The notes under the pieces were generated by a model. The model had not been told where the DNA came from. It saw nothing but the letters and a program-made list of their open reading frames with translations, and ran no database searches. A DNA stretch of 63,997 bases, filler included, from Stramenopiles sp. TOSAG23-2 (Eukaryota), in assembly GCA_900128395.1 (NCBI GenBank). It is 18 parts of 18 records of this genome, joined end to end, with 100 filler letters (N's around TTAATTAATTAA, not from the genome) between each part and the next. Parts side by side here need not be neighbours in the genome. Positions count along the whole stretch, not along the records: positions 21,472 to 24,937 come from LT651197.1; 17 more parts are not named here. One strand, written 5' to 3'. Positions 3,488-51,845 of the stretch are shown here, one piece after another. Each line of letters begins with the position of its first letter. Within the stretch, counting starts at the first letter, position 1. Made by a program: the position numbers and the translations under genes.

Positions 3488-3587
3488 NNNNNNNNNNNNN
3501 NNNNNNNNNNNNNNNNNNNNNNNNNNNNNNNTTAATTAATTAANNNNNNNNNNNNNNNNNNNNNNNNNNNNNNNNNNNNNNNNNNNN
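3488..3587. other. Artificial contig linker N44-TTAATTAATTAA-N44 (first of 17)
   Basis: The same 100-bp linker starts at 3488, 7072, 10656, 14233, 17803, 21372, 24938, 28503, 32068, 35632, 39195, 42754, 46311, 49860, 53406, 56952 and 60498. It places stops in all six frames; contig lengths decrease from 3487 to 3446 bp, with the last one 3400 bp in this window. Confidence 0.99.
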
Positions 3588-7048: not shown

Positions 7049-7981
7049 TATGATGTATATATTATACAAAANNNNNNNNNNNNNNNNNNNNNNNNNNNNN
7101 NNNNNNNNNNNNNNNTTAATTAATTAANNNNNNNNNNNNNNNNNNNNNNNNNNNNNNNNNNNNNNNNNNNNGTAATACATTCATCGTTATCGATAATTAA
7201 TTGTTGTTCTAAGATTACACTAACTACTGTATATGTATTGAATCAATTTGATCTATCTATTCTAATCGATTGACCGTGTACTAACTACTGTATTGAATCA
7301 ATTGATCTATCTATTCTTTAGATAGACAATGTCTACGTCCAGCAATGTCTTCTATGTATATATTCTGATGGGTAATAACTATTTTTTTAGCAATGGTATT
7401 TCCATGTTAAACGTGTGTTTTCTTGCTCTGGCTTGGCACGAGACCATTTTTTTTTCTATTTTTTTAATTTTACTGGGCGATCAACTTCGAACAGACTTGG
7501 TTTAAATTAGTATACTAAGTAGTATTTTATCCTATCAAGTAGAGTGAAAAGTGCATGCCAATGATATACCTATGCCCTATGCCAGAACGTGCGAACCTGT
7601 CGGCAAAAAGAAGGTTAAAAGACCTATCTTCTATTTTTATATCAATATATCCGATATATATATAATATATTAATATTGTATAATATTATATTAAATAATA
7701 TTTATTGTTACATAAAAACCTTTATATTTTAATAAAAGAAAGTGCACTTCGAGTTTTTACTACTGTACAGTATATTTATTTTTAAAAAGGCTCTCGATTT
7801 CCACAGGCACCTAAAATTTAAGGGATTTGACTGAAAAAGTAGATGATGATAAGTATTTATATTATTTGTAAAATTATTAAATTATTTATTTTTATAGTGT
7901 TTTGTTGCTTTTATGATATTACCATTTGTATACATCATATCTTGACTTCTTCGTACATCGTATTATACATATTTACGTAAA

Positions 7982-9621
7982 TCATTTCTTTACCTCTGCC
8001 CTTTTCCTTTGTTTGAAACTACGAGATACAATATCATTCGACGTGGTACCACTTGTTTTGTATATGTTACCAGTCGCAAACATCATGAACTTCATCTTTT
8101 TATCTATGAGCATTATCCAAACTCCATTTAATGAGAACAATAAAATTTGAATGAACATCGATCGTTGTGTGGCACGTTTCCAAATTGTTAATTCTTCACC
8201 ATTAATGTAATAAGTAGCGAGTTTAACACCATTATTTGCAACACCAAATACACTATGGTAAATGTTGCTAGATGTTATCAGTATAAAACATCCGCACCAA
8301 GCTAATACAAAAAATCTATGTTTGATTTTAACAGCATCTATAAATACTGCAGCTATAACGATTACTAGATAAATAAGTCCATTCAGCCATGATGTTGATG
8401 AATTTGGTTTCAAAATTTCAATGAACCAATTCAATATTGCGAGCATTACAATTACAACAACGTTAGGTTCCCGAAGCAAACGCTTTAAAATAAATAACGA
8501 GACATTTCTATATAATATTATTCCGACAAAAATCACATCTATTACACCAACTACTAAGGCTACAAGATTCATTTGCCAATGCCCGAGCAATGATGATATG
8601 ACGTAAATGGTCATCCCAATGAATGCACATATTGCTGCGCCACGTTGTCCCCATTTTACCCTATCATGCAATCCATCATCTAATTGAACTTCTTTTCCTA
8701 ACAGTATAATGCTAGACCTACGTCGGCCATTACTTTGTACGTCCCAGGAATTTCTTGATCTACTACTTTTTTTGTTTATTATATTTTTTTCTTTATCCTC
8801 CTCCTCCTCCTCCTCCTCCTCCTCCCCATCGTCATCATTGTCATCGTCTTCATCAATAAACCCGGTATTTGTTTTTCTATATATATTTCCTGTAGCAAAC
8901 ATCATTAATTCCATGTTTTTATCTTTAATCAATGTCCATATTCCACAAATGGAGAAAAATAATACTTGAACGTATACGTATCTTCGGATTGAACGTTTCC
9001 ACATTATTACTTTTTCACCTTGTATCGTATACTCTGTAAGGGAAATGTTATTATCTATCGTACCAAACGTATAGTTGTAAATATTAAATATATTGATAAG
9101 CACAAAGATGGTGACGAGAGATATAGTCCAACTTCTGCTTTTTTTTATAACAGCATCGATAAAAATAACAAACGATACCAATATAAGATAAACTATCGCA
9201 AAGAGAAATGATTGGGAATCTCTATACTTTACAATCTCAATAAGTAAATTGACTATTCCAAGAAAAATGGAGATGAGAACATTTGGCTCTCTCAATAAAC
9301 GTTTAAGAAATGGAAAGAAACATTTTTGAAATATAATAATCCGAGAGATATTATTGTCATTCCACAAAATATGAGCGACGCAATACCTAATGCAACATTA
9401 TCATAAATCGAGGATAAAACAAATAAAATTGTTGCGAGAAACGAGAAAACTGCCGTTCCACCTTGTCCAAGTTTAACAGTGAAATCACGCCTTTTATCTA
9501 CATCATCTTCTACAACTTTCCCTAAAATCATGATACTCGTTCTTTTAGTACCTCCGTGATTGGCTACATGATTGTCTTCATCCGCGGGTGAAGTTGCCAA
9601 TGGATTCACCTCCATGTTCAT
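7982..9621 (-). CDS. Internally duplicated polytopic membrane protein with a 1-nt frameshift near 9311
   Basis: ORF 9292-9621 (..LLYFKNVSF) joins ORF 7982-9367 (PFLKRLLREPNV..), matching the second repeat ILYRNVSLFILKRLLREPNV. Both halves share FIDAV, WKR, Q.L.FS..G.W and MMFATGNIY. Confidence 0.75.
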
Positions 9622-21471: not shown

Positions 21472-22125
21472 GCAGCCTCTTCTTCATCTTTCGCTTTTTT
21501 CGCTTCAGCTTCTTCTTTAGCTTTTTTCTCTTCCAATGCTTTTGTTGCAGCAGCAGCCTCTTCTTCATCTTTCGCTTTTTTCGCTTCAGCTTCTTCTTTC
21601 GCTTTTTGCTCTTCCAATGCTTTTGTTGCAGCCTCTTCTTCATCTTTCGCTTTTTTCACTTCAGCTTCTTCTTTAGCTTTTTGCTCTTCCAATGCTTTTG
21701 TTGCAGCAGCAACAGCAGCAGCAGCAGCAGCCTCTTCTTCATCTTTCGCTTTTTTCGCTTCAGCTTCTTCTTTAGCTTTTTGCTCTTCCAATGCTTTTGT
21801 TGCAGCAGCAACAGCAGCAGCAGCAGCAGCCTCTTCTTCATCTTTCGCTTTTTTCGCTTCAGCTTCTTCTTTAGCTTTTTGCTCTTCCAATGCTTTTGTT
21901 GCAGCAGCAACAGCAGCAGCAGCAGCAGCCTCTTCTTCATCTTTCGCTTTTTTCGCTTCAGCTTCTTCTTTAGCTTTTTGCTCTTCCAATGCTTTTGTTG
22001 CAGCAGCAACAGCAGCAGCAGCAGCAGCCTCTTCTTCATCTTTCGCTTTTTTCGCTTCAGCTTCTTCTTTAGCTTTTTTCTCTTCCAATGCTTTTGTTGC
22101 AGCAGCCTCTTCTTCATCTTTCGCT
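21472..22125 (-). repeat. Coding tandem repeat, 75-99-bp units (ATKALEEQKAKEEAEAKKAKDEEEA+)
   Basis: At least seven near-identical units that differ in poly-Ala length. Confidence 0.9.
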
Positions 22126-23106
22126 ATTTTAATTACAGTTTCATCTATTGCTTTTTCTTCTTTTAGTGCTTTTGTTGCAATGGCGGCTTTTATCTCTTTA
22201 TGTTGTAATCTATTTTGTCGTTGTTGTTTCTTTTGGTCTTCAGCAACTAGTAAGGTCTCTTCTAATTTTGTAGAGTTCCTCTTACTTGATTTATCATTTT
22301 CGTTTTCGTCTTTACTTTCTATTTGTATTGACTCATTTTCATCCTTACTATCTTGCCTCGGTAATTGTCAATCTAAACAATTGTAAAATGTTTAAAATTT
22401 AGTTAGAAAAAATTCGCTGTTTATATCTTGCTTTAGTGACAAGAATATATATAATTATTTAAGTAAAGGTTTACATACTATTGTTGTTATCTTTCTTGTC
22501 TTCTTCTATTGCGGCTTGTTCTACAATTTTATTTTTCGATGTCTTTTTTTTACCCTCTTGATCACCAATATTATCAACGAATCCTTTTATATCTCCTGGC
22601 ATCTTTTTAACAGACTTAACCGTTTCATTTATACCACTGCCTATTGCACTGCCTACTTCTTTTGTAACAGCAACGGTTTTCGTGGCAACCTTTTGCGATA
22701 CGTCAACAACCTTGTATGTTATATCTTTAGTCGTTGAAACTACACTATCTCCTGCTTGCGTTAACGATTTCTCTCTTATCTCTTTCATCTTAAAGCTAAC
22801 TTCAGCAAGCCGTATTTTTTCTTCTTTCAGTCTTTCCATATTGCCAGAAAGCCTTTTTGCAATTTCTGCGTATTCAGTGCTTGTTTTATCTTCTATTCCA
22901 GCTAATTCTTGAGTGTCACTTTTCATCACAACATCCAAATACTCAATTGTCTGCCGTACCATTTTTTCTTCCGCATCAAGTTTTTTTTGCTCTCGCTTTT
23001 CTGCTTCTGTTAAAGATTGAGAAGTAATGTATTCGGGAAGACTCCCAACGGAACTTCCCACATTAGTACATGCACGATTCCAACCTTTTAAGACTTGATT
23101 TCCCAT
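21472..23106 (-). CDS. Spliced coiled-coil protein gene: exon 1 23106-22479, intron 22478-22373, TGA at 22370-22368, then an in-frame repeat extension to the contig end
   Basis: ATG GGA AAT (MGN..) at 23106; donor GTATGT, branch CTAAC and acceptor TTTAG. The spliced reading is AAT AAT TGA CAA TTA CCG.., open through the AEK-rich repeats to 21472. Confidence 0.75.
22373..22478 (-). other. 106-nt GT-AG spliceosomal intron
   Basis: GTATGTAAAC...TTCTAACT...TTGTTTAG on the minus strand; AT-rich and flanked by coding sequence. Confidence 0.8.
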
Positions 23107-23469
23107 ATCAGTTCTATCTAACAAAGATAATCTTTGCTTTTTCCAATTGCACCTTTTATACAAAACAATGTTAATGATGCAATATTATTCATTATTTATT
23201 ATTTTACAGTAGCAGTATTATATTTTATTTATTATTATTATTATTATATATAGTTGTTTTATTATTATTATTATTATTTTTTGTAGTAATATATATAAAA
23301 GGCAACTACTATTGTCATAAGTAATAATTATTAGTACCAAGTAGTGTGATGATGAGCATACTGGCATACCAGCATACCAGCATATAATATTGCCACTAGC
23401 CAGCTACACTATTTTTCACTATTAATAATAGAAAGATCCTATCACGTTTCCACACCTACATATGGCCTA

Positions 23470-23770
23470 CCCTTGTAAATAGGACGGATGAAACTCTCCT
23501 AAAAACAGGCGTGGTCTAATTAGTACAGATTTAGTGANNNNNNNNNNNNNNNNNNNNNNNNNNNNNNNNNNNNNNNNNNNNNNNNNNNNNNNNNNNNNNN
23601 NNNNNNNNNNNNNNNNNNNNNNNNNNNNNNNNNNNNNNNNNNNNNNNNNNNNNNNNNNNNNNNNNNNNNNNNNNNNNNNNNNNNNNNNNNNNNNNNNNNN
23701 NNNNNNNNNNNNNNNNNTAATTAGACCACGCCTGTTTTTAGGAGAGTTTCATCCGTCTTATTTACAAGGA
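23470..23770. mobile_element. Tc1/mariner-superfamily-like element or MITE with 53-bp TIRs and TA target duplication, interior gapped
   Basis: TA-CCCTTGTAAATAGGACGGATGAAACTCTCC..CTAATTA (23470-23522) and its inverse at 23718-23770 followed by TA; 2 mismatches; 180 N inside. Confidence 0.75.
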
Positions 23771-49961: not shown

Positions 49962-51845
49962 AAAGAGGAATGGAAACCAATTTTTGGAAATGTAAGCACA
50001 ATGAACAGAAATAATAAATCTAGCGAAGACAGTAAACCGAGATCGCGTGTGCGGACTGTCGCAAGGAAATCAAGAGCAAGTGTTCGTGTGCGCGAACAAG
50101 AGGGTATTCATGAACCGGGACGAGTCGGCTTATATAATCTTGGCAATACGTGCTTTATGAATTCTGTGCTACAAAGTTTGTGTTATACCGAAATGTTTAA
50201 AGAAGTTTACAATAGCGATATACCATCCAATTTTCCAATAAAACCACGTACACCATCGTTTTCAAGCCATAATAAATTCAGAAATGCAAAAACATCAGAC
50301 AATCATATGAACAGTAACAACAATAAAAATGTGAATAATAATAACAACAATATGAATCATAGTACTTATCTGAAAAAACGACCTGGACCTAGATCAGTGA
50401 CCTGTTTGCAAGATGTATTACCATCAGGTAGAAACGATTTTGCACCATCAAATGTTATTAATAAATTACAAGGTGGAGATGTAAGCAATAGAGGCACTCG
50501 TACATCTAGCAGAGTTATAGGGCAAGCACTAAAGAGACAAAAAAAAATGGAACCTCATCCATTTGATAATACTAAAGCAACAACAAACATCACAAGTACG
50601 CCGAAACCATCAGTAACCCCAATCGCTGTACATTCATTACCAAATAGCAGTAAAAGTAACTTAAATTCTGTCGAAAACATATCAATTACAAGAGAGATTA
50701 GAAAAGTGTATGAAGCGATATGGAAAGGCAAACATGGTGCTATTTCTACATGGTCTCCACAATATTTTTTCAATACCATTACCCGTTTAATGCCTTTTTT
50801 TGGTGGCAATACACAACAGGATGCGCATGATTTTTTGCATTATTTACTGGATCGTTTAAAAGATGAAAAAAAAATACAAGTAGAACGATTTTTTGGGGGT
50901 AAAATAGCTAGTGATGTGATTTGTGGCCGTTGTGGCAACCATAGACAGCGCATTGAAACGTTTTTGGATCTATCGTTAGATTATACCATGTTAAATGTCA
51001 ACTGCATAAAAGTCATTCGCGAAAGCGATGGAAAAACAGGATTGCAAGCGAGATATTTGAATTTGGTAGACTGTTTAAAACGTTTCACGAAAAAAGAAGA
51101 ATTATCACCGCGTCAAGAATATAAATGTGAAAATTGCTTTGCAACAAGGAAAAGTAAGGAAGAAACGGAAGTGCATTCATATCATGATATTGCATTTAAT
51201 GGAAAATATCCCATCGTCGGTGAAAGTCCAACTGAAAAACGTTTAACAATATCTTCTTTGCCAGAAATTTTGTGCTTGCATTTAAAAAGATGGAGAGCTG
51301 TTGGTCGATATTGGTTTAAAAACGATCGTTACGTTGAATATCCACTAGATGGTTTAGATTTAAAACCTCATATGCATCCAGATATGATTGTAACAAAGGA
51401 TGGAAACGAAATTTCATCGAAAGAGCTTGGGTCAATATATGATTTAATGGCAGTTGTCTGTCATCATGGTGCAGGGGTACGTTCAGGGCATTACACTTCG
51501 TATTGTCGTGATTTTGATAAAAACGAATGGGTTCATTTCGACGACCAGCGTGTTACACCTGTGTCAGATTCGGCACATGTTCAAACTCCGGATGCATATA
51601 TATTATTATATAAACGACGATATTCGCCATTGTCATTAGGTACATCTGATGTTGAATTTAGTAGTGGTGATGAAGATGATGAAGTGGGTGGGTATCATTA
51701 TATTGGCCATAATGGAATATTGCGACAAAACCGTGGAAGTAGTAGCTCTTCATCAACATCCTCAGGTGGTAGTGGTGGTAGGAGAAATACTAATAGAAGT
51801 AAGAAGAATGATCGCGATGGATCGCATCATATTGCGTTCGTGTAG
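49962..51845 (+). CDS. Ubiquitin-specific protease (peptidase C19), 5' truncated
   Basis: Cys box GLYNLGNTCFMNSVLQ, QQDAHDFL, FLDLSL, LCLHLKR, His box HHGAGVRSGHY, W..FDD and AYILLY. Confidence 0.95.
   Translation, partial: KEEWKPIFGNVSTMNRNNKSSEDSKPRSRVRTVARKSRASVRVREQEGIHEPGRVGLYNLGNTCFMNSVLQSLCYTEMFKEVYNSDIPSNFPIKPRTPSFSSHNKFRNAKTSDNHMNSNNNKNVNNNNNNMNHSTYLKKRPGPRSVTCLQDVLPSGRNDFAPSNVINKLQGGDVSNRGTRTSSRVIGQALKRQKKMEPHPFDNTKATTNITSTPKPSVTPIAVHSLPNSSKSNLNSVENISITREIRKVYEAIWKGKHGAISTWSPQYFFNTITRLMPFFGGNTQQDAHDFLHYLLDRLKDEKKIQVERFFGGKIASDVICGRCGNHRQRIETFLDLSLDYTMLNVNCIKVIRESDGKTGLQARYLNLVDCLKRFTKKEELSPRQEYKCENCFATRKSKEETEVHSYHDIAFNGKYPIVGESPTEKRLTISSLPEILCLHLKRWRAVGRYWFKNDRYVEYPLDGLDLKPHMHPDMIVTKDGNEISSKELGSIYDLMAVVCHHGAGVRSGHYTSYCRDFDKNEWVHFDDQRVTPVSDSAHVQTPDAYILLYKRRYSPLSLGTSDVEFSSGDEDDEVGGYHYIGHNGILRQNRGSSSSSSTSSGGSGGRRNTNRSKKNDRDGSHHIAFV

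Follow-up and report, generated by a model that had tools for sequence, protein, structure and literature searches.

A spliced gene of the marine protist Stramenopiles sp. TOSAG23-2 reads, in its mature mRNA, into a UGA stop codon that is followed directly by a leaky-stop hexamer and then by a long frame of coding character. Stop codon readthrough of the CARYYA type, giving an extended protein, is the best single reading of this locus and makes it a credible candidate, to which we attach a probability of roughly 0.45. The gene would be a nuclear one, of an AT-rich, intron-poor marine eukaryote, and a single splice in its mRNA would set the UGA five bases into exon 2. At this codon most ribosomes would terminate and release a helical protein of 210 residues, and some, perhaps a few percent or more, would probably insert the amino acid of a near-cognate tRNA and stay in frame. 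Readthrough would then add a helical Ala/Glu/Lys repeat tail of at least 298 residues, with its end beyond the assembly.

The window, meaning the whole stretch of 63,997 nucleotides that was analyzed, consists of 18 contigs of 3400–3487 bases ordered by decreasing length and separated by 17 N-TTAATTAATTAA-N linkers (at 3488–3587, 7072–7171 and so on). These contigs are separate and merely joined by the linkers, so genes on either side of a linker are not to be taken as genome neighbours. GC content lies between 30 and 39% in 17 contigs and reaches 50% in the remaining one. The gene of interest is found on contig 7 (21472–24937) and is read on the minus strand; its coordinates in the original prediction were all correct when checked on that strand. 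The end of contig 7 is a real one, at the N linker (21471), and the break falls within a tandem repeat. The features of the gene are the following:

22479..23106, minus strand: exon 1, with the ATG at 23106–23104, 209 codons and the first base of codon 210; the protein starts MGNQVLKGWNRAC, and RNA contigs cover 22479–23117.
22373..22478, minus strand: intron of 106 nt with a GTATGT donor, a branch-like site TTCTAAC at 22408–22402 and a TTTAG acceptor; RNA joint 22372/22479.
22368..22370, minus strand: in-frame TGA stop, the second codon after the splice junction, the same in the window and in metagenome contigs L001 and L002.
22362..22367, minus strand: CAATTA hexamer directly 3′ of the TGA, which fits CARYYA and equals the tobacco mosaic virus hexamer.
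22352..22354, minus strand: AAG, a possible alternative in-frame acceptor proposed from sequence only; its use would shift the exon start to 22351 and remove 21 nt, the TGA among them.
22158..22361, minus strand: non-repeat start of the post-stop frame (QLPRQDSKDENES...), supported by stop counts and codon log-odds, with spliced RNA to 22150.
21472..22179, minus strand: tandem repeats with units of 99 nt and of 75, 78 and 81 nt, Ala/Glu/Lys-rich and helical, cut by the contig end.

The stretch holding the gene is present in sequencing runs of 14 studies, and 11 of those runs are recorded as RNA. Assembled contigs of four RNA runs (X2, X5, X6, and X19) were compared with positions 22150–23250. 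The joint 22372/22479, which skips 106 bases bounded by GT and AG on the gene's strand, occurs in three of the four (X2, X5, and X6, from three studies), so that the intron is removed as had been claimed; no other splice joint was seen in the contigs of these three runs. The oligo-dT run X19 has no contig below 22495 and is uninformative on the junction. Joining 22479 to 22372 gives the spliced reading AAC AAC AAT A/AT TGA CAA TTA CCG AGG, which places the stop and its CARYYA motif together in the mature mRNA. As the spliced contigs extend to 22150 or 22169, the transcript runs at least 200–220 nt beyond the TGA, into the first repeats. An unspliced piece is also present in X2, at a depth of 4.1 versus 15.2 for the piece with the junction. 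A search for other introns in the window as a source of an acceptor consensus gave no candidates under strict settings and 247, mostly spurious, under loose ones.

Two independent metagenome contigs, L001 and L002, are 98–99% identical to the window and have the same intron ends, the same TGA and the same CAATTA. Since the TGA is common to all three DNA contigs and to the RNA of X2, X5, and X6, it is not an assembly error. The RNA contigs of these three runs, which cover the site, carry no variant letters at either the stop or the hexamer. A sense codon at 22370–22368, named in the original prediction as an observation that would overturn it, appears in neither the DNA nor the RNA contigs.

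The context of the stop matches published readthrough signals, in keeping with the earlier claim that stop-CARYYA is a leaky-stop context. By one report, a stop with CARYYA behind it is the motif at which tobamoviruses achieve readthrough, and UGA serves in it as well (PMC3542737). In human cells, UGA-CAAUUA gave about 15% readthrough and all six bases mattered; within this context UGA was similar to UAG, both being far above UAA, and the related CARNBA motif is active in yeast readthrough (PMC4132726). No RNA structure was detected 3′ of the TGA (z 0.27); a type I signal is not expected to have one, and the result counts neither way. The window has eight sites at which CARYYA follows a stop, counting both strands and any frame, and only the predicted site has more than 53 open codons after it. 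The motif is expected after roughly 1 in 400 random stops, and this figure is to be read with the fact that the locus was picked because of its hexamer.

Beyond the TGA, a downstream in-frame ORF of coding character is present. As predicted, the frame stays open for 297–298 codons up to the N linker, and its translation contains no Met; by comparison, 0–29 open in-frame codons follow the stops of 15 other long ORFs of the window. Within the repeats several frames are open, and for this reason the non-repeat first 210 nt of the tail provide the test that counts. Here the three frames contain 0, 5, and 11 stops, and only 117 of 20000 shuffles leave frame 0 free of stops (P 0.006). With a codon model trained on 11461 codons from stop-free ORFs of other contigs, the tail has a log-odds of 0.383 in frame 0, level with exon 1 and with the training mean, and of −0.73 and −1.36 in the other frames; 13 true post-stop control windows score no higher than 0.04 even when the best frame of each is taken. 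The 99-nt unit is repeated in 4.8 copies with 99% matches and is accompanied by units of 75, 78, and 81 nt; every one of these lengths is divisible by three. A single-sequence AlphaFold model of the tail predicts helices at residues 27–171 and 178–296 (mean pLDDT 77.8), and the repeat analysis and the model together agree with the anticipated Ala/Glu/Lys helical extension. The tail is protein-coding, now or very recently, in the exact frame that follows the stop. The original prediction of a short protein of about 210 residues plus a long readthrough form therefore stands as regards the splice, the TGA, the hexamer, and the coding-like tail; we infer from these that translation of the tail, and readthrough at some level, is plausible.

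An open frame after a TGA could also mean that TGA is read as sense, either through a reassigned code (Trp or Cys) or as selenocysteine. Nothing specific speaks for this reading, and contig 7 by itself offers too little sequence for a test of the code. The other contigs of the window, however, hold ORFs of 1153, 1151, 1147, and 1131 codons without any stop, and the Pfam domains Coatomer_E (2–287 of 290), UCH (1–254 of 254), FAP206, and DLH are each whole in single ORFs there. No in-frame TGA was met within conserved genes of these contigs, whose stop-free ORFs run up to 1153 codons. The codon log-odds of exon 1 is 0.388, compared with a training mean of 0.381 (sd 0.144); exon 1 thus fits the codon model as well as the training windows do, which argues that contig 7 belongs with the other contigs. 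Taken together, the long stop-free ORFs, the whole domains, and the shared codon usage make general reassignment of TGA very unlikely, as the original prediction had also held. Its observation that other genes end in TGA, at 7982, 26205, and 31432, is correct in that three such long ORFs exist, each with T, not C, as the next base. For selenocysteine, the TGA sits in a poly-Asn linker and not in a redox motif, and neither SECIS nor any other Rfam family reached threshold on contig 7, which ends before the true 3′ UTR. We consider a sense TGA very improbable.

The gene set of the window includes FAP206, C-type lectin, ephrin-receptor-like, FERM/IRS-PTB, and AIDA-C2 domains, and the nearest clusters to its coatomer epsilon protein are chordate, arthropod, and ascomycete. 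These affinities suggest that the source may be a flagellated, possibly holozoan, protist, in which case animal and yeast readthrough data would be relevant to it.

The main rival, which we regard as possible if somewhat doubtful, is a recently truncated gene. Here a young nonsense TGA, or a shift to a new upstream acceptor, would have cut the reading frame; translation would simply end at the TGA, the tail would be 3′ UTR that still looks coding-like since little time has elapsed, and CAATTA would be coincidental. Variants were called between the window, L001, L002 and the RNA contigs, leaving out five differences within the final 21 bases of L002, whose contig end probably lies on another repeat unit. 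Exon 1 has seven synonymous and three non-synonymous variants plus one in-frame 6-base deletion, which indicates purifying selection (P 0.001 versus neutrality). The first ~400 bases of the tail have only nine variants, one synonymous and eight non-synonymous; they fit neutrality (P 0.45) and misfit the exon 1 pattern (P 0.0004), and the two regions differ in their ratio of synonymous to non-synonymous changes (Fisher P 0.02). The synonymous share in the tail, 1/9, is in line with the neutral expectation of 0.197, and its variant density of 2.2% resembles the 1.9% of the intron, both as truncation would have it. One of the eight is an AAA to TAA change at 22190, about 60 codons into the tail, found in L001 alone (one of six sequences covering the site), so that a stop is already present there. 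About 6% of random changes in the tail would make a stop, and the open frame is therefore compatible with less than ~5% neutral divergence since a truncation. Tail polymorphism, in this small sample, looks neutral and resembles that of a fresh 3′ UTR, which weakens the case for selection on a long form. Disordered repeats are, as a class, often fast-evolving. In addition, it is the short protein alone that is conserved in a relative with 66% identity (P0002), which also stops at the intron. Truncation nevertheless requires precisely this leaky hexamer to have arisen by coincidence, with a probability of about 0.002 per stop by a rough estimate from base composition, and the TGA is common to both strain haplotypes (~2% apart) and to RNA from three studies. 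Moreover, if a nonsense change fell in a leaky context, ribosomes would still read through it in part. A hybrid account, in which a nonsense change was tolerated owing to the leaky context, lies between the readthrough and truncation readings. The 6-base deletion in exon 1 (22570–22575, Asp-Asn lost) is common to L002 and an X5 RNA contig, from which it follows that at least two haplotypes circulate.

A second route to a long protein would be an alternative 3′ splice site, which we judge unlikely as the main source of it. A minor transcript spliced to the AAG at 22354–22352, or to an ATAG or AAAG further on, would lose the 21 nt with the TGA and make most of the long isoform, and the TTTAG form would give the short protein. 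The original prediction had proposed that an AAG acceptor (22353–22352) skips the stop in frame. The frame part of that proposal holds, with a 127-nt intron and 235 open codons before and 292 after it, and the TGA sits exactly between the TTTAG and AAG acceptors; its use was not seen in the contigs of three RNA runs. No joint at the AAG occurs in the three runs with a junction contig, bearing in mind that assembled contigs drop rare isoforms. The X2 contig spanning 22150–22372 (depth 12.8) is also unbroken at 22352, where, given how assembly graphs generally behave, a substantial second isoform should have split it. AAG is a weak acceptor, and, counted from the branch site, the one at 22354–22352 is preceded by another AG. 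In fungi, splicing or readthrough can serve the same kind of C-terminal switch (Freitag 2012, as reported in PMC3798809), which speaks for this route. Both routes could also act together: a leaky UGA-CAAUUA within the 21 nt between two in-frame acceptors would let splicing and termination jointly set the ratio of short to long forms. We think such a double switch, with a very long, fast-evolving single-helix Ala/Glu/Lys spacer in its long form, quite unlikely.

Readthrough, the preferred reading, would place the gene among several known systems. As in type I (tobamovirus-type) readthrough, the stop is followed directly by CAAUUA and a long in-frame ORF, and downstream RNA structure is neither present here nor needed. 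Here, however, the gene is cellular, spliced and from a protist, it uses UGA where UAG is usual in natural cases, and its extension is a low-complexity repeat without detectable constraint. Yeast genes with CARNBA contexts and mammalian readthrough genes (OPRL1, MDH1, and others) likewise involve cellular mRNAs, a leaky UGA context, and a C-terminally extended isoform. Those cases are backed by conserved extensions or by reporter assays, whereas this one is known from sequence and transcripts, and extensions are usually short there, compared with at least 298 codons here. To our knowledge, readthrough of a cellular gene by the plant-virus CARYYA signal has been documented in few organisms. Fungal glycolytic enzymes with cryptic peroxisomal tails resemble the present gene in having short and extended forms per gene, produced through readthrough or through alternative splicing depending on the species (Freitag 2012, via PMC3798809); here both routes would be possible 21 nt apart. 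The fungal tail is a short targeting signal, in contrast to the long helical repeat with an unassembled end found here. A literature search combining choanoflagellate with stop codon readthrough returned no related paper, as judged by titles and the starts of abstracts.

If readthrough is real, one mRNA of an abundant marine protist would yield two very different proteins, and gene callers that halt at the UGA would miss most of the coding sequence. Were the locus a double switch, it would be the first described case of a readthrough gene in its lineage of uncultured, possibly holozoan, protists. Under truncation, the locus would be a snapshot of a gene just after the event.

The exon 1 protein is, in its AlphaFold model, a helical hairpin with predicted helices at residues 34–69 and 77–167 and pLDDT above 90 at about residues 41–100. 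A Foldseek search of this model against the PDB gave no matches at E ≤ 0.001 and returned generic helical hairpins only. A Pfam search yielded no family above cut-off for exon 1 and none for the tail, and Protein Atlas gave no lead for exon 1 (best score 0.77). Among 1.84 billion representatives searched there were seven matches, all of them fragments or at most 211 aa. Five homologues are near to it in length, all of at most 230 aa, and the C-terminal ones stop at the intron. None of 2461 longer candidates scored as a longer homologue, and none of 43 candidates matched the first 80 residues of the tail. By these database searches, the exon 1 protein is an orphan. The C-terminal residues of P0002, its closest distinct relative, read like a translated GTATGT, from which the intron position seems conserved, as far as a protein alone can tell. 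A locus scan of metagenomes recovered two same-species contigs only, the 66%-identical orthologue not being among them, and a scan of genome contigs found no further locus. The short protein starts with Met-Gly, and the original prediction considered it possibly myristoylated; MGNQVLK is kept in P0002 and P0005. A small residue is usual at position 6 of N-myristoyltransferase substrates; this protein has Leu there, and the myristoylation claim is accordingly weak.

Several other features of the window were recorded. Contig 7 contains a run of 180 N at 23538–23717 flanked by a perfect inverted repeat of ~40 bases (23485–23537 and 23718–23770), as a result of which the same peptide can be read from either strand; a palindromic element that was masked or left unassembled could explain this, as could a chimera formed in amplification. 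A GCTAGCTAGAGCTAGCTCTAGCC-like palindromic repeat block lies between the two genes of contig 7 (23940–24125), where Rfam gave weak miRNA-like matches alone, far under threshold. The last contig (60598–63997), the one with 50% GC, has one 1131-codon ORF, with EH and AIDA-C2 domains; its source may be a different organism or a different compartment of the genome. A loose computational screen picked out a possible 163-nt intron on the plus strand, close to where the UCH gene ends (51477–51639, GTACGT...TTAG), removal of which would link 505 open codons to a further 88.
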